Both the position numbers and the translations under genes were made by a program. Positions 22,851-60,870 of a stretch of DNA of 64,000 bases are shown in pieces. The DNA lies in the IMG/VR virus record IMGVR_UViG_3300025168_000033, positions 102,533 to 166,532 of that record. One strand, 5' to 3'. Source of the DNA: a virus. Below the pieces are notes generated by a model. It saw only the letters and a program-made list of their open reading frames with translations, was not told the origin of the DNA and ran no database searches. Position 1 is the first letter of the stretch. Each line of letters opens with the position of its first letter.

Positions 22851-23993
22851 CTATAATTTAAAAAATAGCTTTTTTGATTCTTTATCTATTCGATACAGAT
22901 CGACTGTTATATCATCACCCTGTTCGAGTTCAATATTAAGACCTTCATATTCAGATTTATGAAGCAGTCCTGTTATTTTAGGTTCTAGTTCAACAAATAA
23001 TCCGAATCGAGTTATATTTCTAATTTTACCAGTAACGCTACTAGGAACTTTATATCGTTTTTCAATATCATCCCAAGGATCAAGTTCTTCAATTATTTCT
23101 TTTTGAGTAAGAACAATTCTAAATGCATCTACAACCTCTTTAATTTTAAATTCTATTGAATCTCCTGGCTTGATACTTCTACTATTAAATTCTTCAAATG
23201 ATTTCGAATCTAATTCAGATTTATGAATTAATCCAGTAAGACAACTATCAAATTCTACAAAAATACCTATCTTTGATGCGCCTGTTACAAATCCAGTTTT
23301 AGTCTCACCTTGAACGAGATTTGCTGCAGCTTCAGGAACCTGAGTTTTTAGAAATGCTCTATGTGAAACTACAATATAATTTTTACCTGAATCATAATTG
23401 ATAGGACATACATAAATATCTTGTCCTAATAAAGATTCAAAGTTTGTTAATTTATTCATACCACCTTGTGATCCAGGCATAAATACTTCAATACCTCCTA
23501 TATCTAGAAAATATCCACCGTAAACTAGGGTTTTAACTTTTGCAGGATATGCAAAATTAGCACCAATATTAGATTTTATTTCTTCAAACCTACGTTTCTT
23601 AATACCGTCAGTATAGGATCCTACAATATTATAATTTTTTGATTTTTGCTTATTTGAAACTTCTTTTAATAAGACTTCTATTGAATCACCTTCATTAAGA
23701 TCCTCAATAAATTCTGGACTTTCTTTTGATAAATCTAGATATGCTGATTCTCTCCAGTTAATGTCTACTTCTAAATAGCCATTACTCTTTTTTACTATTG
23801 TTCCTTGTGTAATTGTTTTGCTAGAAGGTTTTTTGAAATCTTTGCCTTCCCAGTGAGATGTTAATGTGTCGTAATATTCTTGTGCATAATCTTCTTTTGA
23901 AAGAATTTTTTCACCATTAGATGTTATTACTGTTGAGGTTTTTGTTGACCAATCGAAATTATCAATTGGTGATACATGATTGTACGCTGACAT
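22851..23993 (-). CDS. rpsA: Ribosomal protein S1-like protein (four S1 domains)
   Basis: GGYFLDIGGIEVFMPGS, GIFVEFDSCLTGLIHKSEL, GKIRNITRFGLFVELEPKITGLLHKSE. Confidence 0.85.
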   Translation of the reverse strand: MSAYNHVSPIDNFDWSTKTSTVITSNGEKILSKEDYAQEYYDTLTSHWEGKDFKKPSSKTITQGTIVKKSNGYLEVDINWRESAYLDLSKESPEFIEDLNEGDSIEVLLKEVSNKQKSKNYNIVGSYTDGIKKRRFEEIKSNIGANFAYPAKVKTLVYGGYFLDIGGIEVFMPGSQGGMNKLTNFESLLGQDIYVCPINYDSGKNYIVVSHRAFLKTQVPEAAANLVQGETKTGFVTGASKIGIFVEFDSCLTGLIHKSELDSKSFEEFNSRSIKPGDSIEFKIKEVVDAFRIVLTQKEIIEELDPWDDIEKRYKVPSSVTGKIRNITRFGLFVELEPKITGLLHKSEYEGLNIELEQGDDITVDLYRIDKESKKLFFKL

Positions 23994-39266: not shown

Positions 39267-41807
39267 TTATACTTGTTGTTCATAGTAAAATGATATTAAA
39301 TCTGTTGTTGTAAGATCCATTCCATATATAGTTCCATTCCAATAGAACTTATCACCGAATACTATATCAACCCAATTTTTTGCAGGTGATGTAGAAGTAG
39401 AACTAAAGTATCCATCACAACCAGTTTTAGTTCCATCACCTAACTTGATAATCTGACCATTAATAGTTACAAATACATGGCCATCATTAGCCGGCGTTTT
39501 AGATATTATTGTGCCTGTATCGGCATCATCACCAGTAGTTGCAGCAGATGCCATATTCTTATTAAAGCCTGTTGAAAATGTTCCAGCGCCATCAGCACCA
39601 GTCATTCCTGTAGATCCAGTAGCTCCAGCAACGCCAATACCTGTCATTCCAGTAGGACCTGTAGCTCCAATACCAACAAGCTTAGTTAAGTTAGCATCAA
39701 AATTATTATATGTTATTGTGACTGCTTGATCTGCCTTTAAACGAATTTCAACTACATCATTAGCAACTAATGTTAATAATTTTGACATGGAAAACGAATA
39801 ATTAAATCCACTAGTTTCAAAGAAATTTGATGTGTCTGATCCAGCAATCAATAATCCATTTACATATATTGCAGCTGAAATATTTACATTATTCTGATTA
39901 GCTGATAATGAAAATGTAGCATCAAATTGATAAGCTCCACCATACAGTGTAGGAATTGTAAAATTATCACCAATTATACCTGATCCAGTTGCATATACAA
40001 GCCATCTATATTCACCTCTGGCAGTTCCAGTAATTCCGACATAAGATGTTGTAATTGCCGCAGTAGTTGAACTACCAGACGCAATACTCCATTCTCCATA
40101 GGTAACATCACCAGATACCTGTATCTCTGCACCAGTTGCACCAGCAGAACCAGTAGCACCTTTAAGACTAATAGGAGTTACTCCGGCAAATGTACCAGAG
40201 TTTTTAGGTCCGAAAAGTACAGTTTGAGATGTATCTAACCAGTAGTCACCAGTAGAGCCTAGACTATCATCAAAAGGTGCAACTCCTCTTATTATTCGTG
40301 TCCCTGTACCAGTAGGACCAGTAATTCCTGTTGCGCCTGTTTCACCAGCGCCTGGAATTCCAACAGCTACTACAGACCAGTCAACAGATGAATATGGTCC
40401 AATAAAAGATTTATATAATGGAGCTCCTAGTGATATAGTACCATTGAAACCGTTATATGCAATTACTATAGATTCTGTAAAATGAGAAATATCAACTGAA
40501 TCTATTATTCTAACTCTTTGTCCGGGTGCAAAATTTCTCAGTAATGGCAGAGTCCCAGTTAAAGTTATAGCTGTATTGTCTATTTCTATCGCTGGTCCTT
40601 GGTATCTTGTAAATAGACCACCACCACCTGTAGCACCTGTAGGCCCAGGCAAACCTGCACCTGTTTCACCAGTAGCTCCAGTAATATCTAATGATGTCGA
40701 TGGCCAATTGCCGGAAGTTTTAGGACCGTATAATTGTTTAGTAGAAGTATCTAACCAATAGTCACCATCACTACCAATAGCATTAGCTGGTGGTGTAATT
40801 CCATTTAGAATTGCGGCACCGTCAGGACCAGTCATTCCTGTTGCTCCTGTTTCACCAGCACCTGTTTCACCAGTAATACCTATACCAGCCATACCTGTAA
40901 TAGAAATATCCCAAGTATTTGATGAATATGAGCCAGACCCCCAGGTTCTATATAACGGTGCATCTAAAACTATTGCACCCGTAGAATTATCGTATGAAAA
41001 TATTTGAGATTCAAAAAATTTAGTAATATCATTAGGATTCACAACTCTAACTCGTTGACCAGCAATAAATGCTCTATTTATAGGGGTTGTAGCTGGAAAT
41101 GATACAGCAACACTCTGAACAACAATACTAGTTGCATTATACTTTGCAGTATAATCTGAGCCAGCACCAGTCATTCCTGTCATTCCAGTCATTCCAGTAG
41201 CACCGGTTTCACCCGCACCAGTCATTCCTGTCATACCTGTCATACCAGTAGGGCCTGGAACATTTGATACTCCGTCAGCACCAGTCATTCCAGTAGCACC
41301 AGTCACACCACCACCAGTCATTCCTGTCATACCTGTCATACCAGTAGGGCCTGGAACATTTGATACTCCAGGAATTCCTCGAAGTCCATCAGCACCTGTC
41401 ATACCGGTAGCACCTGTCATACCTGTCATACCAGTCATACCAGTCATTCCAGTAGATCCAGCAGGACCAGGCACAATAGAATCAGCACCTGTCATTCCTG
41501 TCATTCCTGTAGCACCGGCAGGACCAGCACCTACACCGGTTTCTCCAGCAGGACCTTGAGTTCCGTTACCTATAGATTCCCAGTCGTCAGTAGCATCAAA
41601 TGTAGAAAATGTAAGAACATCCCTTTTTGCTCGCCACCAGCTTACTGAACCTGAACCTGCATTTTCATAGAGTACAGTCATACCCTCAAGATAAGGATAA
41701 TTTTGAGTCCATTCATTAGGATATCGCCAGTTATTATCGTGTTCGGCATGAGTTAGATTTCGATCTATATCTAATCTAAAAATTACCTTATTTGGTTTAT
41801 TAGCCAT
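39267..41807 (-). CDS. Collagen-like fibre protein with duplicated globular modules
   Basis: Long G-X-T runs (GMT, GAT, GPT, GET); duplicated GQRVR and GDYWLDTS...GPK modules; C-terminal BclA/C1q-like beta domain. Confidence 0.85.
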   Translation of the reverse strand: MANKPNKVIFRLDIDRNLTHAEHDNNWRYPNEWTQNYPYLEGMTVLYENAGSGSVSWWRAKRDVLTFSTFDATDDWESIGNGTQGPAGETGVGAGPAGATGMTGMTGADSIVPGPAGSTGMTGMTGMTGMTGATGMTGADGLRGIPGVSNVPGPTGMTGMTGMTGGGVTGATGMTGADGVSNVPGPTGMTGMTGMTGAGETGATGMTGMTGMTGAGSDYTAKYNATSIVVQSVAVSFPATTPINRAFIAGQRVRVVNPNDITKFFESQIFSYDNSTGAIVLDAPLYRTWGSGSYSSNTWDISITGMAGIGITGETGAGETGATGMTGPDGAAILNGITPPANAIGSDGDYWLDTSTKQLYGPKTSGNWPSTSLDITGATGETGAGLPGPTGATGGGGLFTRYQGPAIEIDNTAITLTGTLPLLRNFAPGQRVRIIDSVDISHFTESIVIAYNGFNGTISLGAPLYKSFIGPYSSVDWSVVAVGIPGAGETGATGITGPTGTGTRIIRGVAPFDDSLGSTGDYWLDTSQTVLFGPKNSGTFAGVTPISLKGATGSAGATGAEIQVSGDVTYGEWSIASGSSTTAAITTSYVGITGTARGEYRWLVYATGSGIIGDNFTIPTLYGGAYQFDATFSLSANQNNVNISAAIYVNGLLIAGSDTSNFFETSGFNYSFSMSKLLTLVANDVVEIRLKADQAVTITYNNFDANLTKLVGIGATGPTGMTGIGVAGATGSTGMTGADGAGTFSTGFNKNMASAATTGDDADTGTIISKTPANDGHVFVTINGQIIKLGDGTKTGCDGYFSSTSTSPAKNWVDIVFGDKFYWNGTIYGMDLTTTDLISFYYEQQV
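41160..41570. repeat. 9-bp collagen (GMT) tandem repeats with a ~55-bp internal duplication
   Basis: Repeated cagtcattc/ctgtcatac units; GVSNVPGPTGMTGMTGMTG is encoded twice. Confidence 0.9.
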
Positions 41808-42772: not shown

Positions 42773-42834
42773 AGAATCTATGATTTTATTTATATATCAT
42801 AGATTCTAATCAGCTATTTTCAATAAAACTTATA

Positions 42835-43323
42835 TTAAATCCACGGAGATGTAGATTTATCAAATGACAATTCTACTAAAGTTTCCATGTTACCTACACT
42901 TACTCCAGCAGTTTTAAACATGCCAAAATGAGACTGATCTCTGTAATCATCAATCCAATATACATGCTTGAATCCAGAATTAATTAAAACCTTAGAACAC
43001 ATTTTACAAGGACTTAATGTTAATAGAACAATATAATTTTCAGGATCCTTTTCTTGGAATTTTGCAATCATATTAATTTCTGCATGAATAAATCCACTGC
43101 ATCCAGGATCCAGTGATTCTTCTTCAGTTCCAGTTTCTTCCTTTATAGTGTCGCCTTTAAACGATCCGTTATAGCCAAATGACGCTATTCTACTAAAGTC
43201 ATTTCTTAATGCCATGCATCCAACTTTTACTGTTGTTGCTGTAGATAGATTTGCAATCTGCTTTACTATTGTTGCATAGGTTGCAAGCTTATGAGATTTT
43301 CTTTTTATTTTTTCAATATCCAT
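42835..43323 (-). CDS. dCMP deaminase family protein
   Basis: KVGC, GYNG, HAEIN and TLSPCKMCSK motifs. Confidence 0.9.
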   Translation of the reverse strand: MDIEKIKRKSHKLATYATIVKQIANLSTATTVKVGCMALRNDFSRIASFGYNGSFKGDTIKEETGTEEESLDPGCSGFIHAEINMIAKFQEKDPENYIVLLTLSPCKMCSKVLINSGFKHVYWIDDYRDQSHFGMFKTAGVSVGNMETLVELSFDKSTSPWI

Positions 43324-43556
43324 TTTCTATTTTTTACGTCCAATTCACCATTACCATATTTAATATCTAGTTCTTCTTTGAATTTATCATCAAGTTCTCT
43401 AAGTGTATTTATTCTATCTATTAATAAGTCTTTTTCTTGATGTAAACTTTCAATATCTTTTAATACAAGATCAAGGCTATTATGAAGTTCTTTATAAGAA
43501 TTCAAAAATACATCTATCTTCATTTCATCTAATTCATCGAGATTATATTCTTTCAT
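43305..43556 (-). CDS. Small coiled-coil protein
   Basis: 83 aa, overlaps both neighbours. Confidence 0.55.
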   Translation of the reverse strand: MKEYNLDELDEMKIDVFLNSYKELHNSLDLVLKDIESLHQEKDLLIDRINTLRELDDKFKEELDIKYGNGELDVKNRKWILKK

Positions 43557-45157
43557 TTTAAATATTTTGTAAGTAATTGCATTCCGTAAAAATAAGAAGC
43601 AATAACCTTGTTAGGATTATTTTTAATGTAATAAGGCAATTTAAGCCAGATCAAACCAACTAATATTTTCACATCAATATCATCAGTAATTTTATCTAGA
43701 TCCTGACCTTCAATATCAAATTTAATTTCATCACCATCAATTTTAAATTTAAAGTTTTTGTCTAGATTAAAATGTGAATATCCAGACAAGCCATAAGCAA
43801 ATTTAGCATGATCATAATTAGTATCGCCATAGAAATTAGAATTCCCAAATCGACCACGTGGATCAATGAATTTTACTTCATGATAATATGATTCCATAGT
43901 TTGCCAATCCAATGTAAATTGATGTTCTATTCTTTTAGCCATGATATTTGACGAATTAGGATCGCCATGAATCAATCCCCAGTTATAGGTTTTAGATTTC
44001 AAATACATCAATAATTTATCCATCATTGAATAGAAATCACCTATTAAAACACCGTTAACTCGTGTAATATTCTTTGGAATCAAATATTCAATCTTGCTAT
44101 ATCTTTCAATAGGAACACGATAATATTCTTCAAATATATCAGCATTGAATTTTACCTTTTCAATATTAGATTCAGATAATTTTTCAATTGCTTCAAATAC
44201 GTCCGATGTCAATTTTGAATCTTCTGGCATTTCATGAATAGTTTGATATCCAGTAGTTTTAAGATTTTCCATTTCAATGCAATCCATATCAGCATTTAAA
44301 ATTTTAGGAAATGATTCACTTGAATTTTTAATTGCATGACAATAAAAATTAGATTCATGTTGCATAACCCTTTTACCGTAATCCGATATAGATTTTTTAT
44401 AGACTATAGATTCAGTAAATACAATATCATTAAACCATCGTTGTTCTACAGATTGAGATTCTAGATATTTTTCATATTTAGGAATATCACCTATATCGTC
44501 AATTGAAATTATGGATTCAGAAATAAATCTTCCCCAGCTATCGTAAGATCCAGTAGGATATTTTTCAATTGCATACATTAAATAATCTACAAAATCTATT
44601 TCATTATCGTCATTAATTACTAAGCTATAAAAGTCTTCAATAGATTTTATTTCTAATTCTTTATATTTGTAAAGACCCATGATATTTCCTTCATGACCAG
44701 GAGAATATTTTATTGTATTATCTTCAAGTCCATATCTATGAACTTTATTAGAATCAGTATAAACCTGAATCATTGCATTTTCAATATCAGCTAGCTTAGA
44801 TTTTTGATGAGGAACAATATCAGACCAGCTTAAAAATACATCTTTTAAATATTCTGGATGCTGATTTAATATCCAGTAGATAGTTCTAAAAGTACCATCA
44901 GTCTTTGGATAATATGCAAGTTTAATATTTCTATTTGAATGAAATACGTTCAAGTATTTTTGTATCATATTAACATAAGATTCCTCACTTAATACAATCA
45001 TCATTTCCTGTACTTCTTCATTTTCAAACCAGTATTCAACTAATTTATCAAGCATGGTTTGATTGCCAAGACTAAGAAGCAATTTAGGATATTGACCTTG
45101 AGTATATGTATGTAAACGACTACCTAATCCACCTGCAAGTATTAATGCTTTTGTCAT
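43553..45157 (-). CDS. Nucleotidyltransferase fused to APH/choline-kinase-like sugar kinase
   Basis: ALILAGGLGSRL...PKLLL (NTP transferase); LIHGDPNSSNI and FIDPRG (kinase). Confidence 0.85.
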   Translation of the reverse strand: MTKALILAGGLGSRLHTYTQGQYPKLLLSLGNQTMLDKLVEYWFENEEVQEMMIVLSEESYVNMIQKYLNVFHSNRNIKLAYYPKTDGTFRTIYWILNQHPEYLKDVFLSWSDIVPHQKSKLADIENAMIQVYTDSNKVHRYGLEDNTIKYSPGHEGNIMGLYKYKELEIKSIEDFYSLVINDDNEIDFVDYLMYAIEKYPTGSYDSWGRFISESIISIDDIGDIPKYEKYLESQSVEQRWFNDIVFTESIVYKKSISDYGKRVMQHESNFYCHAIKNSSESFPKILNADMDCIEMENLKTTGYQTIHEMPEDSKLTSDVFEAIEKLSESNIEKVKFNADIFEEYYRVPIERYSKIEYLIPKNITRVNGVLIGDFYSMMDKLLMYLKSKTYNWGLIHGDPNSSNIMAKRIEHQFTLDWQTMESYYHEVKFIDPRGRFGNSNFYGDTNYDHAKFAYGLSGYSHFNLDKNFKFKIDGDEIKFDIEGQDLDKITDDIDVKILVGLIWLKLPYYIKNNPNKVIASYFYGMQLLTKYLK

Positions 45158-45161
45158 CTTA

Positions 45162-45779
45162 TTATTTGTTTATTGTTTTTCCAATCGATCCACCTGGATG
45201 ATTGATTCCAAAATGTTCTTGTGTAAATTTTAAATCCTGTGATGCAGCTACACCAACAATATCACCAACCATTTGTATAGTTAATGCTGATATAGTAGGA
45301 ACCATATTATGCGGATCCAGTTCTTCGCCTATATGTAAATGAATTACTTTATCACAATATAAATCAAAGAAATTATGTTTTTGTGAACAATCGATTCCCC
45401 ATACAGTTACATTAAAATGTTCCTTGTTATTATCGATATGTTGAAGTGTATTTATTAATTCAGCAGTATTTCCTGACTTAGATTGACATATTAATATGTC
45501 GCCTGGATTTAAGATTCCTAGATCACCATGTACCGCATGTACAGCATCCATAAAGAAAGATGGAATTCCTAGTGATGAAAATGATGCAGCTAATTTTTGA
45601 GCAGCATACACATTTTTTCCTATTCCTGTGAAAATAACTTTTCTGCCATTGATTTTTGCATCAACTACATCTTTAGTTAATTCACGAATTAAATTCATAG
45701 TATCTGTATTCGCTATAGAATTTAAACTTTGATTAAGACTACTTGTTCCTTTACGTATAATTGCTTCGATTCTTTCCAT
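45162..45779 (-). CDS. kdsD: SIS-domain sugar-phosphate isomerase (arabinose-5-phosphate isomerase KdsD/GutQ-like, no CBS domains)
   Basis: VIFTGIGKN..AQKLAASFSSLGIPSFF, AVHGDLG, SKSGNTAEL, PTIS, NHPGGSIG. Confidence 0.85.
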   Translation of the reverse strand: MERIEAIIRKGTSSLNQSLNSIANTDTMNLIRELTKDVVDAKINGRKVIFTGIGKNVYAAQKLAASFSSLGIPSFFMDAVHAVHGDLGILNPGDILICQSKSGNTAELINTLQHIDNNKEHFNVTVWGIDCSQKHNFFDLYCDKVIHLHIGEELDPHNMVPTISALTIQMVGDIVGVAASQDLKFTQEHFGINHPGGSIGKTINK

Positions 45780-47407
45780 TAATAAATTAAAGTTTGTATA
45801 TAGTTATTATTCTTATTTTGTTTTAATGTTTCAAATGCTATGCAATCCGATGAAATAAAATTTACAATTTTAGGACACAATATAGACATTTCAATTAATG
45901 ATTGATGTAGTACTTCTTCGGGATTTTCATAAATCGGTATTGTCATATTTTCATGATTTACAATTTCATTAAGAACACTAAAGTATAATGACTTTTTATT
46001 GATATTCAAATCACTAGCAATATTTATAATTTCAACATTATCTGGTGTTTTTTCGATTATGCTAGCATCGTTTGGATTAGTTATAAGAATTGCATATTTA
46101 CCTGAAGCACTAAATAATCGCTTAACGATTCCATCAAAATTATAGCAAGGATCTGAAAGCCTAAATGGCATGAAAAAGACATGATCAAATTTATTAGAAG
46201 CTTCTTTAATTATTGATGTAATTTTATTTGTTTCTTCTGTCGTTAATAATGACTTAAAGAATTCCTGTTGAATTTTCAAGAACTTACTATTTGAAATATT
46301 ATCATCAACAATTACGTTTGCATCAATAGTTAAATACTCTTCATTATCTGAATTATGTTTCATGAAATCTTTTTGATTCTCGTTTAATACAAATATTTGA
46401 TTTTCTGTATTTATTGCCCTTTCATATTGAGCATTAAAAAATGAATCTATAAACCATCTTTCAATATTGAAGTTTTGTGAGATATTAAAATTGTAATATC
46501 CATGATTGTGTTTAGATAAATCAATTCCTTCAAAGTCTGATATAACAGCATCATAAGAGTTACTTGCGCCATATTTACCATTGAACAATTTTCTATTTTC
46601 ATAAGCATTAATACCATAATCAATAGGTATAAATGTAATTCTATCAGCAAACGTAGGTCTAACAAATTTTAAAAGAATTTCCATTTGATCCTCGTCAATA
46701 TTTTTAGGTATTGTTATATCAAATTGTGACCATGAATTAGATTCACATATTCCATAAATTCTATGTAACGTTAAATTCAAGTTGCCATCCAATAATGGAT
46801 TGTAAGTTTCATCAGAATGATTACGCATTGAATATTGCTGAATAAACAAAATCTTATTAAATCTACGATCAATAAAGGTTTCTACAAATGATGCTTGATG
46901 TGATTTTTTTACTATTGTATCTGCAATTCTATCGAGAGGAATATCAATAAATACAAATTTGGATAAAACATGTAAAGCCATATCCATAAAGAAATAATCC
47001 GACGTATTATATTTACTTTTAAAATCTAAATGCGGCGTAAATATGCTATGAGCATTTGCTGTTGTAATAGCATAAGTATTTCTAAAGACATCAATATCAT
47101 AAATATCGTCACCAACATAAATACATTCATCAAGATTAAATTTAGCTTTTAATGTTGATAATTTTTTATGTGATTTAACAAATAATATTTCTGTAATTTT
47201 AAGATTTTTACAGAATCTTTGAGTTATAGCCTGTCCATTTTTAGTGCTATCACCTGTAATAATGTATATGTCAAATCTATTATCTACTAGAATATCTACC
47301 GCATGTCTGATACCCCAAGGGAAGGTTTTTAAAGCCTTCCCGTGTTCATCATAAATCATGTTCGATGCAAATACACCATCGAAATCCATAATAATTTTGT
47401 TTCTCAT
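45779..47407 (-). CDS. KdsC-like HAD phosphatase fused to an uncharacterised ~370-aa domain (candidate glycosyltransferase)
   Basis: MDFDGVF, IITG, YVGDDIYD HAD motifs; C-terminal domain has QYSMR..DGNLN and PFRLSD motifs, with function inferred from context only. Confidence 0.65.
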   Translation of the reverse strand: MRNKIIMDFDGVFASNMIYDEHGKALKTFPWGIRHAVDILVDNRFDIYIITGDSTKNGQAITQRFCKNLKITEILFVKSHKKLSTLKAKFNLDECIYVGDDIYDIDVFRNTYAITTANAHSIFTPHLDFKSKYNTSDYFFMDMALHVLSKFVFIDIPLDRIADTIVKKSHQASFVETFIDRRFNKILFIQQYSMRNHSDETYNPLLDGNLNLTLHRIYGICESNSWSQFDITIPKNIDEDQMEILLKFVRPTFADRITFIPIDYGINAYENRKLFNGKYGASNSYDAVISDFEGIDLSKHNHGYYNFNISQNFNIERWFIDSFFNAQYERAINTENQIFVLNENQKDFMKHNSDNEEYLTIDANVIVDDNISNSKFLKIQQEFFKSLLTTEETNKITSIIKEASNKFDHVFFMPFRLSDPCYNFDGIVKRLFSASGKYAILITNPNDASIIEKTPDNVEIINIASDLNINKKSLYFSVLNEIVNHENMTIPIYENPEEVLHQSLIEMSILCPKIVNFISSDCIAFETLKQNKNNNYIQTLIY

Positions 47408-47937
47408 ATTTTATCTTTTATAATGTTGTATACAGTTTTTAAATCGTTTACCGATGTATCTATAACTTCAATATTTATTTTAGGTACTTGATGTTGAATT
47501 TCAAATATATGAGATGCAAATAAATATTGCATATCAGTATATTCGGTTGAAGTTAATTTGACTTTATTTTTAGGACCGCGATTTAAATAATCTCTATGAG
47601 TATTTTTTAAATAGAACATTGTAATTTCATTATCTTTAGAAAGTTCCTTAACATATTCAATATCCATATATGTCTTTCTTTTAAATTGTTCCGAATAAAC
47701 AAATTCACTTAAAAAGAATCTATCAAATATGTAAGTATCGTTAGGAATAATTTTTAGAAATTTTTGCGTGAAATTATGTATGCCTTCGTAAAATATTCCA
47801 AGATGTTCAAATGGAATATCATCAGGTTGTTTCTTGCCTGGCTTTACAAAAGTGCCAATATTATCGCGATGAAGTATTTCTATTAATGTTGTTTTTCCAC
47901 AACGTTCAATACCTTCAAGTATAATTAATTTAGCCAT
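47404..47937 (-). CDS. Thymidylate kinase-like dNMP kinase
   Basis: IILEGIERCGKTT P-loop; IFDRFFLSEFVY. Confidence 0.85.
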   Translation of the reverse strand: MAKLIILEGIERCGKTTLIEILHRDNIGTFVKPGKKQPDDIPFEHLGIFYEGIHNFTQKFLKIIPNDTYIFDRFFLSEFVYSEQFKRKTYMDIEYVKELSKDNEITMFYLKNTHRDYLNRGPKNKVKLTSTEYTDMQYLFASHIFEIQHQVPKINIEVIDTSVNDLKTVYNIIKDKI

Positions 47938-48632
47938 TAAATAATGTTAAGAGATTCTAAATATTCTTCATCACGTTCAAATACATGTGCGGATACAACT
48001 GATGACATAAATGTTCCGACTTCGATATTTAATTGTTTTGCTATTTCACATTGAAATCTACCCCATATATACATATCAAGCTTTAAGACTTGTGCCATAT
48101 TTTGTGATCGCATATGTAAGTGCATATTTAATTTATTTTCACGAATTGATAGCGTAGCAGAATCACAACATGGAAATTCTAATGATTCATCTTTATCAAG
48201 TAATTGCAAATCATCACTAGACAAAATAGAAATTACCGCACGTCGGCTATTAGGATTGTCCTTTAATTCTTTGAGAATTATTGGTAGTTGTGAAACAATT
48301 CTAGGACCATAAAACGTATTAAAATTTGCAGGCAAATCAGGATTTTCAGGCTTCTTTAAAAATCTAGCAACCTGAGGATAGTCTTTTAAAACCGATTCAG
48401 TATCAGTGGATCCACTTATCATCCAGTCATAGAAATTAACAGCATATCCATAGTCAATACGACCTATATCTTCATCTTTAAAAATATATGATGTTGGATC
48501 GTTTACTAGATATGTTAGTCCTTGAATTTCACGCATGTCACCTATGCGCGAATCAGTTTTATAATCCGGTTGTATCCAGATTTCAGAAATAGTATCTACA
48601 AAAGCTTCTTGAAATGTATTGACTGCTATCAT
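47937..48632 (-). CDS. Thymidylate synthase-fold dCMP-modifying enzyme (hydroxymethylase/hydroxylase-like)
   Basis: YGPRI, SRRAVI, FPCC, MRSQN, KLDMY (Asp at the pyrimidine-specificity site), SAHVFE. Confidence 0.8.
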   Translation of the reverse strand: MIAVNTFQEAFVDTISEIWIQPDYKTDSRIGDMREIQGLTYLVNDPTSYIFKDEDIGRIDYGYAVNFYDWMISGSTDTESVLKDYPQVARFLKKPENPDLPANFNTFYGPRIVSQLPIILKELKDNPNSRRAVISILSSDDLQLLDKDESLEFPCCDSATLSIRENKLNMHLHMRSQNMAQVLKLDMYIWGRFQCEIAKQLNIEVGTFMSSVVSAHVFERDEEYLESLNII

Positions 48633-48644
48633 ATATGTTTATTT

Positions 48645-48674
48645 TTTATATTACTATTTTGTTACATTGTTTCA
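48645..48674 (-). promoter_or_regulatory. Class II promoter (heads the DNA-modification operon)
   Basis: TGAAAC AATGTAACAAAATAG TAATATAAA. Confidence 0.7.
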
Positions 48675-49457
48675 TATTGATTTCTTAATTGTATTCCGTA
48701 ATTGACAATGTTCTGATATTAACATCTCATCATTAAATTCGTCAATATTACTTGACCAGAATATACGACCATATATTTCTCTATTATCAATATATTGCTT
48801 GATTTCGTTTTTACGTAAATTATCCGAGAATATTACATATTCATATCTTCCACTATTATCATCATATACAATTTTATCTAATGCTTTATTTGCTATATAA
48901 TATGTACAATGAACTACAGGCACTTCAATAAGACCTTTACAGGTTTGATTCAATATATAATGATATTCAGGCGATTCTTTAAAATATCCATTCTGGTCTA
49001 TCGATGAATGATAGTTTGAATATAGATTCGGTGTTTTTAAAAGTGGAGCAACAACATCAAATCCGGTAGACCTAATCGCGTTAATTGTATGCGGCAAGCA
49101 AATATTATCACAATCGGCTATGAAATAATCAGCACCTTCGCTTAATGCAAAGTCACATGAATTCTGCCTAATCTTTCCTAAGATTTTAAATCTATTTACA
49201 TTCCAATCATGATTGCCGGTAGATATTAAATTAGAGTCTATAGATGAATCATCTAAATATATCTTATATTTCCATTTATACTTTTTATAGAAGTCACGTA
49301 ACACCTCCGAGGTATCATCATTATTATCGTTTGTTCGTATATAAAAAATTGTATCTGATGATATTTCAGTTTGAGCTAATAAACTATCCAGATAAAACGG
49401 CAATATATGTCCGACTGATTTTGCCAGAATTGCTATTACTAAAGGTTTCTTTTTCAT
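48672..49457 (-). CDS. GT-A glycosyltransferase resembling the collagen galactosyltransferase/PLOD GT domain
   Basis: IRTNDNNDDT, YFIADCDN (DxD), VVAPLL, YSNY, EVPVVHCTYYI, YIDNREIYG. Confidence 0.7.
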   Translation of the reverse strand: MKKKPLVIAILAKSVGHILPFYLDSLLAQTEISSDTIFYIRTNDNNDDTSEVLRDFYKKYKWKYKIYLDDSSIDSNLISTGNHDWNVNRFKILGKIRQNSCDFALSEGADYFIADCDNICLPHTINAIRSTGFDVVAPLLKTPNLYSNYHSSIDQNGYFKESPEYHYILNQTCKGLIEVPVVHCTYYIANKALDKIVYDDNSGRYEYVIFSDNLRKNEIKQYIDNREIYGRIFWSSNIDEFNDEMLISEHCQLRNTIKKSI

Positions 49458-49458
49458 G

Positions 49459-50700
49459 TTAAAATAATGAATTAGTCTCTACTGCAGGTAAACAAAATTT
49501 ATTGTAATTTTCTGGCTTTACAATCTCATCAATCATTGCATACCATTTATTAGGAAAGTCGTTAACGTGTAATTTATCAAATATTCCTTTTTGAATTTGT
49601 TTCCTAAATTCTAGATCTTCTGGAATTTCATTTATTATATCTAGTAACGTATCCGGATTATCATTCAATAAATCTACGTTATATGAATAATGTGAAATGT
49701 CTTTTAGGATAGTTTCTGCTGGATATTTATTTTCAAAATCATTTGAAAATGCAAGAACAGATGGAACTCCAAGTTCACCAACTTCTAGCATTGTTATTGG
49801 ACCTGTTTCCTTATAAGATCCGCTAATAAATGCTTTACAGTTTGCAGCAATTTTAAACATTTCATCACGCGGCATACCAACATGCACTTTAACATGTTCA
49901 TACAATTTTTCCTGTTTTAATATTCTATTAAGAATTGCATCCGCAGCATAATCATTGTGCTTAGTAAAAATATGGATATCACCACCTTTATAATCTGTCA
50001 AAAATTTCAATGTTTCTGGAATTCTTTTCATCTTATCTGTACGGCCTATCATCATAATATCACCAGTAGAACTTTTAACTTCTTGCTTAGGATTTTCAAA
50101 GCAGAAACTAAAGAATCCATTATTGAAATCTACAAACGGAATAGGAATAGGTGGTATTTTCTTGGCTTCCATAGTATATGTAGCCTTAGCAAAATCCGAG
50201 TTAGTCATCATAACAGTATTAACTCTACCGGGTGCTGTAGCTCTATAATTATCATGATCTAGATACCAATCTTTCATTCCAGGAAATGGGCATTCAACAA
50301 GTGCAATTTGTGCACTCATATGAAAAATATTGATGATATTTAATTTCTTGTTGCAGCTATATGGCATCAAGGTTTTACACATGTTATTCATCTTTTTACC
50401 GTCAGTAAATGCGTGATTAACTAAAACATCTATTCGTCTATCGACAATAATCTGTTGAATTTCTGGACCGATTCTAGATATTCTGCCTTTCTTACCGCAT
50501 AGAATTGAAGTAACAATATGATTTTCATGAATCTTAGGAGAATCCTTAGTTTCATGTGTGAATGAATATAGATAATGATTATTGTCAGTATTGTCATTGA
50601 CTAAGGCTTCCCACCAGGCAAGACAGACCCTTTCGGATCCGCCTGCTACTTTATTAATTTCAACTGGGCCTCGTGGTAAAAATACATGTAGATAATTCAT
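49459..50700 (-). CDS. GT-B (GT4-like) glycosyltransferase
   Basis: GGSERV, IGRTDKMK, ETGPITMLEVGELGVPSV (EX7E). Confidence 0.8.
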   Translation of the reverse strand: MNYLHVFLPRGPVEINKVAGGSERVCLAWWEALVNDNTDNNHYLYSFTHETKDSPKIHENHIVTSILCGKKGRISRIGPEIQQIIVDRRIDVLVNHAFTDGKKMNNMCKTLMPYSCNKKLNIINIFHMSAQIALVECPFPGMKDWYLDHDNYRATAPGRVNTVMMTNSDFAKATYTMEAKKIPPIPIPFVDFNNGFFSFCFENPKQEVKSSTGDIMMIGRTDKMKRIPETLKFLTDYKGGDIHIFTKHNDYAADAILNRILKQEKLYEHVKVHVGMPRDEMFKIAANCKAFISGSYKETGPITMLEVGELGVPSVLAFSNDFENKYPAETILKDISHYSYNVDLLNDNPDTLLDIINEIPEDLEFRKQIQKGIFDKLHVNDFPNKWYAMIDEIVKPENYNKFCLPAVETNSLF

Positions 50701-50715
50701 AGGTTGCGATTTAAA

Positions 50716-52041
50716 TTATATATCGCGACCATTTTCAAAAACATGTTTTAATACTGGAAATCTTAAGGATTCTTTACCTTGTTTGTTGACAGTATATTCG
50801 AAGAATTGAATAGTACAGGTCTTTCCTACAATTAAAGAATTATCTTTATAGAATGCTTGTCTTTGTTTCATAGATAAACCAGAGCCAACATCAACAAGAT
50901 TTCCTTTATGTTCTATTACTAGATTAGATACCATTTCTTCTTCAACCTCGGTAGATATTTTAGATCCATCTGGTTGTGGAATATATTTGATGTATCTTAC
51001 ATTTCCAGGAACAGTATCAATAATAACATATTCATCATCCATCATTTCCTTGACCTTAAGCAGATCTTTAGATCTTTTACCTTTGTAAGTAGTATCTTTA
51101 CGAACCATGAATCCTTCCCATTTCTTAGTTCTAGATTCATCTAACCAAGAATTAAAAATGTTCATGTCTGTTACTTGTTCTTGTTGTAGAACTTCAACAG
51201 TATTTGAATCTTTTAATATTGAACATTTTTCAGTTAGATTAATTAATCTTTCAGATAATAATGTTGTAGAAGATTCATTATCAAAATCCGTTTGAGTAAT
51301 CATATCAAATATCTTGAATTTTGGATTTTCGATAGTATGATTTTTCCTTCTGATTTCTGACATAACACCGTTAAAGTTATCTGTGCCATCTGGATTAATT
51401 AAACAGATTTCACCGTCGAAAACCGTATTAGGTGAATTTAATAATTTAATTTCATCAAGAACTTTTTGAATTGTATCAAAAGATTTACCTGATCGAGATA
51501 ATGCAATTGGTGTATTGTTAGGACCTGTAAAAATCAAACATCTTACACCATCAAGTTTCCTAGATGCAAACCATGTTTCTTTTTCAAAATCAACATATTC
51601 AGGATAGTAATCAACAGCTAGAGCTACATTAAATGATGGAACGATATCACCGAAGATTTTGTTAATAGTAGTACTTGATACACGAATCTTTAAATTGTTA
51701 TCGATCAATCCGTATATTAATTCTTCGTATTCCTTGTTTTGTTCGATATATCCAAGAACAGCGGCTATTGCAGAATGACCAGTTAAATCACGATTATTAA
51801 GGGCATCTAGTAAATCGAAGATTGAATCGAATTGAAATGTTGGTTGTAATTTGCTAGCCATTTTTCTAGCAGTTTTTTCATGAACACCATATTTTTTGTA
51901 TGGTGACATTGCATATAGAAATGCTTTCTTAATAAATTCATTATCAACATAATCGTTAAGAATTTGTTTCTTATCGTTATTTGAATTTGTTGATTTTAAT
52001 CGTGTGACCATGTCGGCCATAGTTCTAAATTGTTCAGTCAT
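50716..52041 (-). CDS. ATP-dependent DNA ligase
   Basis: KLDGVR, VFDGEI, IFDM, EGFMVR, LLKVKE, SLRFP. Start moved from 52065 to 52041 because the upstream ATG lies in the conserved leader. Confidence 0.9.
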   Translation of the reverse strand: MTEQFRTMADMVTRLKSTNSNNDKKQILNDYVDNEFIKKAFLYAMSPYKKYGVHEKTARKMASKLQPTFQFDSIFDLLDALNNRDLTGHSAIAAVLGYIEQNKEYEELIYGLIDNNLKIRVSSTTINKIFGDIVPSFNVALAVDYYPEYVDFEKETWFASRKLDGVRCLIFTGPNNTPIALSRSGKSFDTIQKVLDEIKLLNSPNTVFDGEICLINPDGTDNFNGVMSEIRRKNHTIENPKFKIFDMITQTDFDNESSTTLLSERLINLTEKCSILKDSNTVEVLQQEQVTDMNIFNSWLDESRTKKWEGFMVRKDTTYKGKRSKDLLKVKEMMDDEYVIIDTVPGNVRYIKYIPQPDGSKISTEVEEEMVSNLVIEHKGNLVDVGSGLSMKQRQAFYKDNSLIVGKTCTIQFFEYTVNKQGKESLRFPVLKHVFENGRDI

Positions 52042-52066
52042 AATGTGCGTGTTTAAAGTTGTCATT

Positions 52067-52133
52067 TATTAATTATTTATAGTTAAATATAAACAAAATA
52101 ATCGACAGTAAAAAATCCTAGAGCACTTATTTT
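52067..52133 (-). promoter_or_regulatory. Class I (putative early) promoter repeat, copy 1
   Basis: GGATTTTTTACTGTCGA-N~8-TTATATTTAACTATAAATAATTAATAA; seven intergenic copies. Confidence 0.8.
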
Positions 52134-52349: not shown

Positions 52350-52838
52350 TTATTCCTTAAATTTGTTTATTGATTCTCTTAATAGCTGAGATTCTTTATT
52401 ATATATTTCCTCGTCATTACCGTTGTATGTTAGATGTACAGGTCGCGGAACATTAGCACCGACATATTCTAAAATATGTTTCATATGACTCGTACCTAAT
52501 AGATTGCCAGAAAAACTACCTGAATATCCGACGAGGAAAACATTCTTGTCTTTAAGATAATTTGGCCATCCTAAATTGTCGACTAATGCTTTAAATGGCG
52601 CTGGAAAGGAACCATTAAATTCCGGCATTACGAATACAAATTTAACAGCTTTATATACCGGATGCTTAATGTTAGATATTATCTCTTCTGGATTAATTGA
52701 TTCCTGTTTTACATCAAGTATTGTAGCAAGATCTGTTTTATTTACTATGGCCGCTATATTTGTAGCAAGCTTAGAGCCAAATCCCTTATCCGTACTTAAT
52801 TTAAGAATAATATATTTAGTCACTGGTTTACCAGACAT
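52350..52838 (-). CDS. NAD(P)H-dependent FMN reductase-like flavoprotein
   Basis: FVFVMPEFNGSFPAPFKALVD...LKDKNVFLVGYSG. Confidence 0.8.
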   Translation of the reverse strand: MSGKPVTKYIILKLSTDKGFGSKLATNIAAIVNKTDLATILDVKQESINPEEIISNIKHPVYKAVKFVFVMPEFNGSFPAPFKALVDNLGWPNYLKDKNVFLVGYSGSFSGNLLGTSHMKHILEYVGANVPRPVHLTYNGNDEEIYNKESQLLRESINKFKE

Positions 52839-56084: not shown

Positions 56085-56108
56085 GTGTGTGTATTTAAAG
56101 GGGTTATC

Positions 56109-56165
56109 AGTTATTAATTATTTATAGTTAAATATAAACAAAAAAAACGACAGTAAAAAATTCTG
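56109..56165 (-). promoter_or_regulatory. Class I promoter repeat, copy 2
   Basis: Same motif, upstream of ATG 56084. Confidence 0.8.
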
Positions 56166-59738: not shown

Positions 59739-59743
59739 TTTTG

Positions 59744-59817
59744 TCGGGTAGGCAGGATTCGAACTTACGATCTCCTCGTCCCAAACGAGGCGCGTTACCT
59801 GGCTACGCTACTACCCG
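59744..59817 (-). tRNA. tRNA-Pro (UGG)
   Basis: CGGGTAG/CTACCCG acceptor, CCTCG-TTTGGGA-CGAGG anticodon arm, TTCGAAT T-loop; T-stem has one A-C mismatch; CCA not encoded. Confidence 0.9.
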
Positions 59818-60121: not shown

Positions 60122-60198
60122 TGGTGGTCTAAATGAGAATCGAACTCATTATCTTCAAGGCTATTCGCCAAGTGCTCTACCAATTGAGCTACAGACCC
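60122..60198 (-). tRNA. tRNA-like element with aberrant anticodon arm (identity undetermined)
   Basis: TAGCTCAATTGGTAGAGC D-arm, ATGAG-TTCGATT-CTCAT T-arm, GGTCTG/TAGACC acceptor and ACCA end; no canonical anticodon stem. Confidence 0.65.
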
Positions 60199-60776: not shown

Positions 60777-60796
60777 GTGTGTTGTATTTAAGTTGT

Positions 60797-60870
60797 CAGT
60801 TATTAATTATTTATAGTATAAATATAATCAAAAAATTCGACAGTAAAAAATCCTGGTGAATCTTTTTTTC
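60797..60870 (-). promoter_or_regulatory. Class I promoter repeat, copy 4
   Basis: Same motif, upstream of ATG 60776. Confidence 0.8.

Follow-up and report, generated by a model that had tools for sequence, protein, structure and literature searches.

The minus-strand operon at positions 42835-48632 of the 64,000-nt window (the whole stretch of viral DNA analysed) can be predicted with good confidence to make glycosylated 5-hydroxycytosine (5hoC) take the place of all cytosine in the phage DNA, with D-arabinose made by the phage itself as the sugar. The locus is a rearranged, non-Straboviridae variant of the known gene set for sugar decoration of 5-hydroxycytosine, described in Straboviridae as the arabinosyl-5-hydroxycytosine pathway of RB69 (gp45-gp55 and gp3), DLP3 (gp76-83) and HY126 (Afh enzymes) (PMC6024577, PMC13326640). 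The pathway is already known, and its range and parts list are now broader than published. The phage is uncultivated, and its 166-kb record is an estimated 59% fragment. Its capsid protein groups with those of PAU, PTm1 and Lak-type jumbo phages, not with Straboviridae, which agrees with the preliminary description in placing the operon outside the T-even coliphages. The features of the locus are as follows:

42835..43323, minus strand: dCMP deaminase, 162 aa (PF00383 7.3e-16, phrog_174 2.2e-25)
43305..43556, minus strand: conserved ORF of 83 aa, acidic and coiled-coil-like
43553..45157, minus strand: AfhE-like bifunctional enzyme, 534 aa (PF00483 4.2e-9, phrog_4098 3.8e-89)
45162..45779, minus strand: single-domain SIS arabinose-5-phosphate isomerase (predicted), 205 aa (PF01380, phrog_5670 8.7e-39)
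45779..47407, minus strand: HAD-GT fusion protein, 542 aa
45779..46855, minus strand: GT-B glycosyltransferase, C-terminal domain of the fusion (phrog_3891 1.6e-33)
46943..47407, minus strand: KdsC/YrbI-type HAD phosphatase, N-terminal domain of the fusion (TIGR01670 8e-12)
47404..47937, minus strand: Tmk-like P-loop nucleotide kinase, 177 aa, its start overlapping the TS stop
47937..48632, minus strand: TS-fold enzyme, 231 aa (PF00303 5.5e-13, phrog_160 1.9e-33)
48672..49457, minus strand: GT-A glycosyltransferase (Glyco_tranf_2_4), 261 aa
49459..50700, minus strand: GT4-family GT-B glycosyltransferase, 413 aa (PF00534 5.9e-6)
50716..50724, minus strand: class II promoter-like motif GATATATAA, immediately upstream of the GT4 start
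50716..52065, minus strand: ATP-dependent DNA ligase, 449 aa (PF01068 1.5e-15 and PF14743)
52066..52120, minus strand: early-type promoter-like motif of ~50 nt (ACTGTCGATT..TTTGTTTATATTTAACTATAAATAATTAATAA), immediately upstream of the ligase start
52350..52838, minus strand: NADPH-dependent FMN reductase, 162 aa (PF03358 9.3e-12, above cut-off)

The operon comprises seven genes with the folds that had been predicted, separated by -1, -4, -1, +4, -4 and -19 nt. The TS-fold, kinase, HAD fusion, SIS, NTP transferase-kinase and dCMP deaminase genes of the preliminary description were all found on the minus strand where it had placed them, and the tight coupling it reported holds, with gaps of -19 to +4 nt. 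All genes of the operon are under purifying selection (dN/dS 0.03-0.23 against a 91-99% identical metagenomic relative), and the core of TS, fusion, SIS and AfhE genes is preserved at seven metagenomic loci with 43-91% identity. The module extends beyond the operon: the two glycosyltransferase genes at 48672-50700 belong to it, as does, probably, the gene for the FMN reductase.

The TS homologue shares 52% identity with both RB69 gp48 and the HY126 enzyme, and matches PDB entries 9iqu/9iqc at E 1.1e-71. In MAFFT alignments it carries E143/C146/N169/D177 (E. coli ThyA numbering), and the Asp in its KLDM motif, earlier proposed to select dCMP, indeed occupies the ThyA N177 position. By comparison, the phage's own ThyA, encoded separately in the 166-kb fragment, has L143/D169/N177, and T4 gp42 retains D169 in the alignment. 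The position equivalent to ThyA H147 is variable, being Cys here and Thr in RB69. In the tree, the TS homologue clusters with D169N homologues (support 85/92). RB69 gp48 is a verified 5-hydroxy-dCMP (5hodCMP) synthase, and N169 replaces the folate-contacting Asp in every verified enzyme of this kind (PMC13326640). The TS homologue is predicted to be a flavin-dependent 5hodCMP synthase, with a signature as in the RB69 and HY126 enzymes. Because of the D169N signature and the 52% identity to verified synthases, the predicted base is 5-hydroxycytosine rather than 5-hydroxymethylcytosine; of the "hydroxy(methyl)cytosine" suggested previously, the hydroxy form is thus the one favoured. An identity as a T4 gp42-type hydroxymethylase was rejected on E143/N169/D177 and the similarity to the RB69/HY126 enzymes.

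The Tmk-like kinase (PF02223 1.6e-5, below cut-off; phrog_761 3.3e-13) is weakly similar to RB69 p045 (pairwise E 2e-5), and its gene adjoins the TS gene also in L014, L025, L026 and L027. It may phosphorylate 5hodCMP. Moreover, the FMN reductase, which probably supplies reduced flavin to the putative hydroxylase, is syntenic in four lineages, among them three besides the present one (L015/L016, L026 and L027) in which it accompanies a D169N TS gene; tblastn gave no match for it among cultured phages.

The sugar genes correspond to the published route, which runs from arabinose-5-phosphate through arabinose-1,5-bisphosphate and arabinose-1-phosphate to UDP-arabinose. The SIS protein, previously described as isomerase-like, bears out that assignment by matching KpsF/GutQ (TIGR00393 4.2e-30) and PDB entries 5uqi (7.6e-30), 3etn (3.4e-18) and 2xhz (1.8e-13); it retains the HGDLG, SxSGxT and HPGG motifs and is 33% identical to RB69 p055. 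The AfhE-like enzyme, consisting of an N-terminal sugar-1-phosphate nucleotidyltransferase and a C-terminal sugar kinase, aligns over its full length with HY126 AfhE (E 1.2e-44), PAU gp215 (1.3e-84), PTm1 ORF165 and the bifunctional RB69 gp52:53, and matches 372 phage records. The fusion of these two activities is the same in RB69, where it appears split merely through sequencing error (PMC13326640), so the "different fusions" noted earlier apply to the HAD phosphatase joined to a DNA glycosyltransferase and not to this one.

A phosphatase is needed because the published route passes through arabinose-1,5-bisphosphate. The AfhF-type phosphatase (EcbF/BcbF HAD) is absent, and in its stead the N-terminal HAD domain of the fusion, with DFDGV and GDDxxD motifs, resembles KdsC (PDB 7t35, 5.6e-8; Foldseek 4um5, 9e-9, TM by target 0.73) and would act as an arabinose-1,5-bisphosphate 5-phosphatase. 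The GT-B domain (AF2 model, pLDDT 89.7) matches the 299-aa HY126 GT (blastp 1.7e-18) and, by tblastn, RB69 p046 and p047, and its model resembles LmbT (3.8e-7), MshA 3c4q (3.2e-5) and T4 alpha-GT with DNA 1ya6 (2.5e-4) in Foldseek. By sequence, it is homologous to the transferase that places the base-proximal arabinose on DNA (RB69 gp46:47, HY126 GT). The HAD-GT fusion is kept in about 20 protein clusters or metagenomic lineages. The TS Asp, the isomerase homologue and the full-length AfhE homologue together support the earlier reading of an arabinosylation-type cytosine operon.

As for the upstream transferases, GT4 matches GT4 clusters in the Atlas at TM 0.71-0.78 and has just two known homologue clusters, of which a 52% identical member directly precedes the TS gene in L027; it shows no similarity to RB69 gp3 and is a candidate glycan-extending transferase. 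GT-A matches PF13704 clusters (TM 0.94, feature score 0.99), its L014 homologue scores PF13704, and homologues with 58-60% identity adjoin D169N TS genes in L025 and L026. Since this family is very large in viruses (>900 homologues), GT-A need not act on DNA.

From the folds, homologies, signature residues and conserved synteny of these genes, we infer a pathway, including every activity, the identity of the sugar, the order of transfer and the final structure. A gp56-like dCTPase from another part of the genome (a homologue in the 166-kb fragment is 45% identical, E 1.2e-23) would convert dCTP to dCMP, which the TS-fold enzyme would hydroxylate at C5 with reduced FMN and O2, the phage FMN reductase being the probable source of FMNH2. 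5hodCMP would then be brought to the triphosphate by the Tmk-like kinase, which is translationally coupled, together with the NDP kinase of the host, and the polymerase would incorporate it. In parallel, the SIS isomerase would convert ribulose-5-phosphate to arabinose-5-phosphate, the AfhE-like enzyme would use its kinase half to form arabinose-1,5-bisphosphate, the KdsC-type domain would take off the 5-phosphate, and the nucleotidyltransferase half would yield NDP-arabinose. The phosphatase-fused GT-B domain would move arabinose onto 5hoC in DNA, and GT4 and GT-A would probably lengthen or diversify the glycan. The dCMP deaminase, which adjoins the AfhE homologue also in L008, L011, L014 and L017, is predicted to channel dCMP into dUMP, from which the separate canonical ThyA would provide dTMP.

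Compared with the Straboviridae pathway, the locus shares the TS fold with E143/N169/D177, a Tmk-like kinase in the cluster, the SIS isomerase, the full-length AfhE-type enzyme, a small capless HAD phosphatase, a homologue of the base-proximal GT-B arabinosyltransferase, a gp56-like dCTPase, and separate ThyA and dCMP deaminase. It differs, however, in its PAU/PTm1/Lak-like jumbo phage lineage, related to phages of Bacteroidota, in a KdsC/YrbI-type, arabinosyltransferase-fused phosphatase instead of an EcbF/BcbF-type one, in extra transferases (GT4 and GT-A) unrelated to gp3 or gp76/77, in possessing a phage FMN reductase, and in including the dCMP deaminase in the operon. Neither a U32 (RB69 gp50) homologue nor a gp1-type dNMP kinase was found in the 166-kb fragment, and the sugar enzymes reach just 29-33% identity, compared with the 52% of the TS homologue.

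As in T4 glucosylation (gp42, gp1, gp56, alpha- and beta-glucosyltransferases), a dCTPase would clear dCTP, a TS-fold enzyme with Asp at the N177 position would modify dCMP, a kinase would phosphorylate the product, and the sugar would be joined to DNA after replication. Unlike T4, the predicted reaction is hydroxylation (N169) with flavin instead of hydroxymethylation (D169) with folate, the sugar donor would be a phage-made pentose nucleotide instead of host UDP-glucose, and alpha-GT/beta-GT homologues are lacking here. In Pootjesviridae (Rhizobium phage RL38J1), too, a TS homologue with D169N and a Tmk-like kinase occur beside a GT-B transferase. The fold of this transferase is like that of LmbT, which also ranks first among the structural matches of the fusion GT domain. 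These phages, however, use hexoses (galactofuranose, glucose) via UDP-galactopyranose mutase and are without SIS, AfhE and phosphatase genes (PMC13326640).

Among cultured phages, the Bacteroidota jumbo phages PAU and PTm1, whose clusters are unannotated, provide the closest homologues of both the AfhE-like enzyme (34% and 32%) and the capsid protein, and their TS homologues also carry E143/N169/D177. PAU gp216 has a KdsC-like HAD N-terminus as in the fusion, whereas PTm1 has a histidine phosphatase in this slot and an apparently split transferase (ORF163 and ORF164), and the PAU TS homologue lies ~20 kb from the sugar genes. GT4 and the FMN reductase are absent from both by tblastn, and no report on their DNA chemistry was found in the literature examined.

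Three other explanations were weighed. With the operon logic unchanged, the TS homologue might be a gp42-type folate-dependent dCMP hydroxymethylase producing arabinosyl-5-hydroxymethylcytosine, as RB69 was read in 2018. It shares with T4 gp42 the Asp at N177 and an acidic residue at L143, and such a combination may occur in nature, because Chryseobacterium phage MA9V-1 pairs a gp42-like D143/D169/D177 enzyme with SIS and AfhE homologues. Yet N169, clustering with D169N homologues, matches to T4 gp42 structures at just E 5e-6, and FMN reductase synteny favouring flavin chemistry make this extremely improbable. A glycan other than simple arabinose on 5hoC, be it another pentose or derivative, or a mixed oligosaccharide built by GT-A and GT4 from host NDP-hexoses, is unlikely, though less remotely so. 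One block holds three glycosyltransferases from three families, and Pootjesviridae attach hexoses to 5hoC (PMC13326640). In L025 and L026, amino- or deoxy-sugar enzymes accompany the GT-A homologues and D169N TS in place of arabinose genes, and the lineage therefore swaps sugar cassettes. However, the locus has all four functions of the arabinose route, conserved as a set, and several transferases alone do not imply several sugars, because DLP3 makes tri-arabinose with three.

The sugar genes might instead serve host KDO or capsule, or glycosylate virion proteins such as the collagen-like fibre protein nearby, leaving only the TS homologue to alter the nucleotide pool. KDO synthesis likewise uses SIS and KdsC, as its first and third enzymes, the GT-A model is similar to collagen galactosyltransferase/PLOD GT domains (TM 0.79-0.89), and surface-polysaccharide cassettes occur in jumbo phages (PMC7824862). 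An 846-aa collagen-repeat protein is encoded 1 kb downstream. Against this, KdsA and KdsB were not found in the 166-kb record, the phosphatase forms one protein with a DNA arabinosyltransferase homologue and is coupled with the TS and kinase genes, the AfhE homologue is confined to modified-cytosine phages, and the TS-fusion-SIS-AfhE core is intact in lineages without the collagen-like gene, so that this explanation is very unlikely and glycosylated 5hoC in the DNA is preferred.

The 83-aa ORF of the operon has a dN/dS of 0.037 against L014 and a 38% identical homologue at the matching position in L027, while profile searches (including Pfam, phrog and TIGR) gave no family match. The DNA ligase holds an equivalent place in L014 and L027 and is probably a syntenic neighbour outside the pathway. 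The single class II promoter previously proposed for the operon is a weak claim, as the TS gene is preceded merely by a degenerate TAATATAAAA. The window has eight exact GATATATAA matches, every one on the coding strand, where 3.5 would be expected over the two strands together, and besides the one ahead of GT4, a second lies upstream of orf299 (42790-42798). Finally, the ~50-nt early-type motif, which may act as a promoter, also stands ahead of >15 further genes on the minus strand of the genome.

The window forms the final 64 kb of a 166.5-kb IMG/VR record of an uncultivated phage (GC 0.31; completeness estimated at 59%), and nearly every gene lies on the minus strand. The operon at window positions 42835-48674 consists of seven ORFs which overlap or almost touch, with gaps of -1, -4, -1, +4, -4, and -19 nt:

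Minus strand, within 42835-48674: TS-fold protein, 231 aa
Minus strand, within 42835-48674: Tmk-like P-loop kinase, 177 aa
Minus strand, within 42835-48674: HAD fusion protein, 542 aa
Minus strand, within 42835-48674: single-domain SIS protein, 205 aa
Minus strand, within 42835-48674: NTP-transferase protein with a long C-terminal extension, 534 aa
Minus strand, within 42835-48674: ORF of 83 aa
Minus strand, within 42835-48674: dCMP deaminase, 162 aa

All the folds predicted in the preliminary description are present, and with gaps from -19 to +4 nt the enzyme set is as tightly coupled as was claimed. The metagenomic contig L014 carries eleven genes in identical order with protein identities of 90-99%, and dN/dS against this contig is 0.03-0.28 across all genes (0.037 for the 83-aa ORF), indicating that every gene, the 83-aa ORF included, is real and constrained. 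Comparing the region by megablast with 50,697 phage records gave zero matches. Searching IMG/VR with the fusion protein also returned zero matches when pattern-based and one further contig only when alignment was used; finding relatives required a large protein collection.

The TS-fold protein matches PF00303 above the cut-off, with the catalytic cysteine C146 and the phosphate-binding RS motif (R166 and S167; E. coli ThyA numbering) aligned and invariant. The Asp in KLDM, which had been proposed to select dCMP, does align with ThyA N177 (D177), and an acidic residue, E143 within LEFPC, occupies the position of L143. The motif MRSQN carries Asn at the position of ThyA Asp169. This N169 is common to the window enzyme, RB69 gp48, HY126, and P10VF, while Asp is kept in T4 gp42 and both ThyA sequences.

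Table. TS homologues aligned to E. coli ThyA with MAFFT: residues at four positions (order: 143, 146, 169, 177).
Window enzyme, RB69, HY126, PTm1, PAU, P10VF, and all metagenomic relatives: E, C, N, D
T4 gp42: D, C, D, D
Second TS gene of the same phage as the window enzyme: L, C, D, N

RB69 gp48 and DLP3 gp80 were shown by Lee et al. (NAR 2026, PMC13326640) to carry flavin and to convert dCMP to 5-hydroxy-dCMP with O2. In that study N177D and L143E were described as common to these enzymes and T4 gp42, while the Asn at D169 was unique to them, and D169N was proposed as the diagnostic residue. The experimentally verified RB69 gp48 is 52% identical to the TS-fold enzyme (E 3.9e-71), as is the HY126 enzyme (52%). 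The best solved structures are PDB 9iqu/9iqc (E 1.1e-71), the printed sequence of which matches the HY126 homologue, and far weaker matches were obtained with the CMP hydroxymethylase MilA, ThyA, and T4 gp42 (E 1e-10 to 5e-6). In the tree, sequences with D169N cluster apart from ThyA and gp42 (support 85/92). Taken together, the E/N/D signature, the identity pattern, and the tree grouping point to 5-hydroxycytosine rather than 5-hydroxymethylcytosine as the predicted base, and the TS-fold enzyme is predicted to be of the hydroxylase type, not the gp42 type.

A flavin reductase gene is also possessed by the window phage:

52350-52838, minus strand: NADPH-dependent FMN reductase, upstream of an ATP-dependent ligase

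It had zero tblastn matches among cultured phages. The metagenomic contig L027 retains the whole block at 38-72% identity, in the order guanylate kinase, exonuclease, FMN reductase, ligase, GT4, TS, kinase, fusion, SIS, AfhE, and small ORF. The reductase also adjoins the D169N TS gene in the metagenomic loci L015/L016 and L026, and is syntenic in four lineages. That these phages encode a flavin reductase themselves independently supports, on genomic grounds, flavin chemistry in the hydroxylase, and the synteny lends indirect support to the predicted FMN/O2-dependent hydroxylation of dCMP by the TS homologue. The base had previously been left as hydroxy(methyl)cytosine; its hydroxy part is favoured by N169 and by the identity to RB69 gp48, while N169 speaks against the hydroxymethyl part. 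The alternative that the TS homologue is a hydroxymethylase is contradicted by N169, the identity pattern, and the FMN reductase synteny. A T4-type 5-hydroxymethylcytosine system is unlikely, as the folate-contacting Asp169 of the gp42 type is absent, with Asn instead, and T4 gp42 structures match only at E 5e-6.

As Lee et al. (PMC13326640) describe the arabinose route, with reference to He et al. and Mahler et al., an isomerase first converts ribulose-5-phosphate to arabinose-5-phosphate. AfhE then yields arabinose-1,5-bisphosphate through its kinase half, the phosphatase AfhF yields arabinose-1-phosphate, the transferase half of AfhE forms UDP-arabinose, and arabinose is finally transferred onto 5-hydroxycytosine within DNA. 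Each of these functions has a candidate gene in the locus. The SIS protein, which had been called A5P isomerase-like, fits this assignment (KpsF/GutQ, 4.2e-30; PDB 5uqi, 3etn, and 2xhz, conserved motifs kept) and is 33% identical to RB69 p055. Similarly, the proposed NTP transferase-kinase was recognized in the 534-aa protein, which aligns over residues 1-534 with residues 1-506 of HY126 AfhE (E 1.2e-44) and matches phrog_4098 (3.8e-89). It aligns better to PAU gp215, PTm1 ORF165, and the MA9V-1 GlmU-like proteins than to HY126 AfhE.

Two domains are fused in the 542-aa protein (full-length model pLDDT 88). Residues 5-134 constitute a KdsC/YrbI-type HAD phosphatase (TIGR01670, 8e-12; PDB KdsC, 5.6e-8; Foldseek KdsC-type match, 9e-9) with DFDGV and GDDxxD motifs. 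The RB69 phosphatase p051, in contrast, belongs to the EcbF/BcbF subfamily (TIGR01689), and the fusion HAD is not of this AfhF type, having no BLAST similarity to the 128-aa HAD of HY126. RB69 gp50 (U32) and gp51 (AfhF) also had no significant match in the 166-kb record. The AfhF function is probably supplied here by another HAD subfamily. In Tenacibaculum phage PTm1, unlike the window phage, a histidine phosphatase occupies the phosphatase slot. Different phosphatases in one slot suggest that the step is required while the enzymes differ, and the slot seems to have been occupied on at least three independent occasions, once each by an EcbF-type HAD, a KdsC-type HAD, and a histidine phosphatase. 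As the window locus illustrates, the phosphatase can be fused to a DNA transferase.

Residues 193-506 of the fusion match the 299-aa glycosyltransferase of HY126 (E 1.7e-18), and RB69 p046 and p047 (gp46:47, the base-proximal arabinosyltransferase, with DLP3 gp79 as counterpart) match this domain by tblastn. Because Foldseek with the full-length model gave KdsC-type matches only, the domain was folded separately. Its model is of the GT-B type with LmbT, MshA, and sucrose-phosphate synthase as nearest structures, and the Foldseek check proposed beforehand placed DNA-bound T4 alpha-glucosyltransferase among the structure matches. These structural neighbours agree with those of the RB69 and RL38J1 (Pootjesviridae) transferases (PMC13326640).

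The operon span claimed earlier holds for the core, but the module is wider, with GT-A and GT4 transferases directly upstream and the ligase and FMN reductase beyond. The 261-aa GT-A protein itself has zero Pfam matches; its Atlas model matches PF13704 clusters at TM 0.94, PF13704 is recorded on close homologues, and more than 900 homologues were found. The 413-aa GT4 transferase has zero tblastn matches in phages and zero similarity to RB69 gp3, so it is not called an orthologue of arabinosyltransferase 2/3.

The short motif GATATATAA occurs eight times in the window, always on the coding strand, and lies upstream of GT4 and orf299. The TS gene is preceded by a degenerate form only, which leaves the single class II promoter once placed in front of it unsupported. 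A near-invariant motif of about 50 nt, ACTGTCGATT..TTTGTTTATATTTAACTATAAATAATTAATAAC, is found upstream of more than 15 minus-strand genes throughout the genome, including the ligase, with copies at these window positions, among others:

52066-52120: ACTGTCGATT..TTTGTTTATATTTAACTATAAATAATTAATAAC motif
56085-56140: ACTGTCGATT..TTTGTTTATATTTAACTATAAATAATTAATAAC motif
60777-60830: ACTGTCGATT..TTTGTTTATATTTAACTATAAATAATTAATAAC motif

This longer motif probably marks the early promoters of the phage, and GT4 or the ligase is the more likely start of the transcription unit. Matches in a sigma-70 promoter scan were rarer than in shuffled sequence, so the scan was uninformative.

Occurrence outside the T-even phages, as anticipated, is supported by the gp23-like capsid protein, which is closest to that of an uncultured 462-kb phage (55%), followed by PAU (37%), PTm1 (36%), pT24, and Lak phages. 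These relatives place the window phage among the Bacteroidota-associated jumbo/huge phages, not the Straboviridae. The record also encodes distant homologues of gp41, gp44, gp46, gp47, gp61, UvsX, gp2, and gp4, as well as two further genes of nucleotide metabolism:

Genome 14442-15431: canonical ThyA, the second TS gene (Pfam E 1.2e-95)
Genome 78453-78935: gp56-like dCTPase (45% identical over 96 aa, E 1.2e-23)

The dCTPase gene adjoins the first piece of a split gp43-like DNA polymerase, the two pieces of which lie about 4.5 kb apart (genome C1:78942-80063 and 73508-74392), ahead of the window. For a gp1-type dNMP kinase the best tblastn match had E 0.13 in this record, which covers about 59% of the genome; the kinase whose gene is coupled to that of the TS homologue is Tmk-like. 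A 380-aa protein with two S1 RNA-binding domains (PF00575, 6.7e-25; window 22851-23993, minus strand) represents a ribosomal-protein-S1-like gene, a kind known in huge phages. tRNA-Pro(TGG) and a tRNA-Ile with the unusual anticodon AAT are encoded at window 59743-59817 and 60122-60197 (minus strand).

Among cultured relatives, phage PAU (JQ362498.1: 135407-135901, 154025-158186) possesses an E143/N169/D177 TS homologue, a SIS gene, the AfhE-like gp215, and gp216, which contains a KdsC-like HAD. Extensive modification of PAU DNA has been reported (PMC7824862), which fits the D169N TS homologue and the AfhE, SIS, and HAD genes; glycosylated 5-hydroxycytosine in PAU DNA is a direct prediction from these gene contents. 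In PTm1 (L006, ORF163-167), the AfhE homologue and the D169N TS gene are separated by the histidine phosphatase ORF166, and ORF163 and ORF164 correspond to different portions of the transferase domain, which looks like a split gene. Chryseobacterium phage MA9V-1 (OR050627.1; L007, L023) carries SIS and AfhE homologues together with a TS of D143/D169/D177, the T4 gp42-type signature, suggesting that an arabinose-type decoration may sit on 5-hydroxymethylcytosine there, not on 5-hydroxycytosine.

The sugar genes might instead serve KDO or surface glycans, as the SIS and KdsC folds and a nearby collagen-repeat protein would suggest. This explanation is weakened, however, as KdsA and KdsB (PF00793, PF02348) were not found in the 166-kb fragment record while control genomes matched, the phosphatase is fused to a DNA-transferase homologue, and lineages that lack the collagen-like gene keep the core; the KDO-pathway reading was rejected on the KdsA/KdsB result from this fragment. 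The collagen triple-helix repeat protein (846 aa; window 39267-41807, minus strand), perhaps a fibre protein, is encoded in a locally GC-rich stretch (0.41 versus 0.30). The glycosyltransferase domains of collagen glycosyltransferases are also resembled by the GT-A model. A role of GT-A in glycosylating collagen was rated low, because its homologues adjoin D169N TS genes in unrelated sugar contexts.

In two independent metagenomic contigs, L025 (4977-13378) and L026 (3664-14810), GT-A homologues of 58-60% identity flank D169N TS genes (59-61% identical) and a Tmk-like kinase, and epimerase/dehydratase, aminotransferase, acetyltransferase, and deacetylase genes replace the arabinose genes. Both loci also encode a 433-aa unknown protein, and the sugar genes belong to the NAD-dependent epimerase/dehydratase, DegT aminotransferase, hexapeptide acetyltransferase, and PIG-L deacetylase families. 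These sets are candidates for amino-sugar or deoxy-sugar decorations of 5-hydroxycytosine. The gene contexts of L027, L015/L016, L025, and L026 can be read as a chassis of the lineage that accepts different sugar cassettes; the recurring parts of this chassis are taken to be the TS homologue and Tmk-like kinase, with the reductase and GT-A/GT4 alongside in most contigs. The cassettes seen are arabinose in the window phage and L027, and amino-sugar/deoxy-sugar enzymes in L025 and L026. We tentatively propose, at somewhat less than even confidence, a constant chassis with swappable cassettes, by which the window phage would carry 5-hydroxycytosine with an undescribed hetero-oligosaccharide built by three unrelated transferases. 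If so, the fusion would channel arabinose-1-phosphate metabolism into the DNA-modifying step, and the long-known DNA modification of phage PAU would be explained. As an alternative to an arabinose decoration, the glycan on 5-hydroxycytosine may be mixed or non-arabinose.

The chemistry of glycosylated 5-hydroxycytosine was established only in 2025-2026, and to our knowledge the arabinose form of this base has so far been reported only for Straboviridae of Enterobacterales and Acinetobacter. Judged from gene content, the predicted arabinosyl-5-hydroxycytosine-type system is already known, while the lineage is new and the parts list changed: the whole predicted route is also present in a distant large-phage lineage, the hosts of which are probably Bacteroidota. 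For two cultured phages, PAU and PTm1, the locus yields testable predictions, and it points to further sugar cassettes on 5-hydroxycytosine. Both bear on restriction and CRISPR resistance and on the sequencing and cloning of such phage DNA. A protein of 383-390 aa, with zero homologues in the 166-kb record and a weak match to Nuc_deoxyri_tr2 (nucleoside deoxyribosyltransferase-like), is encoded no more than a few kb from the D169N TS gene in the metagenomic loci L008, L011, L015, and L016.
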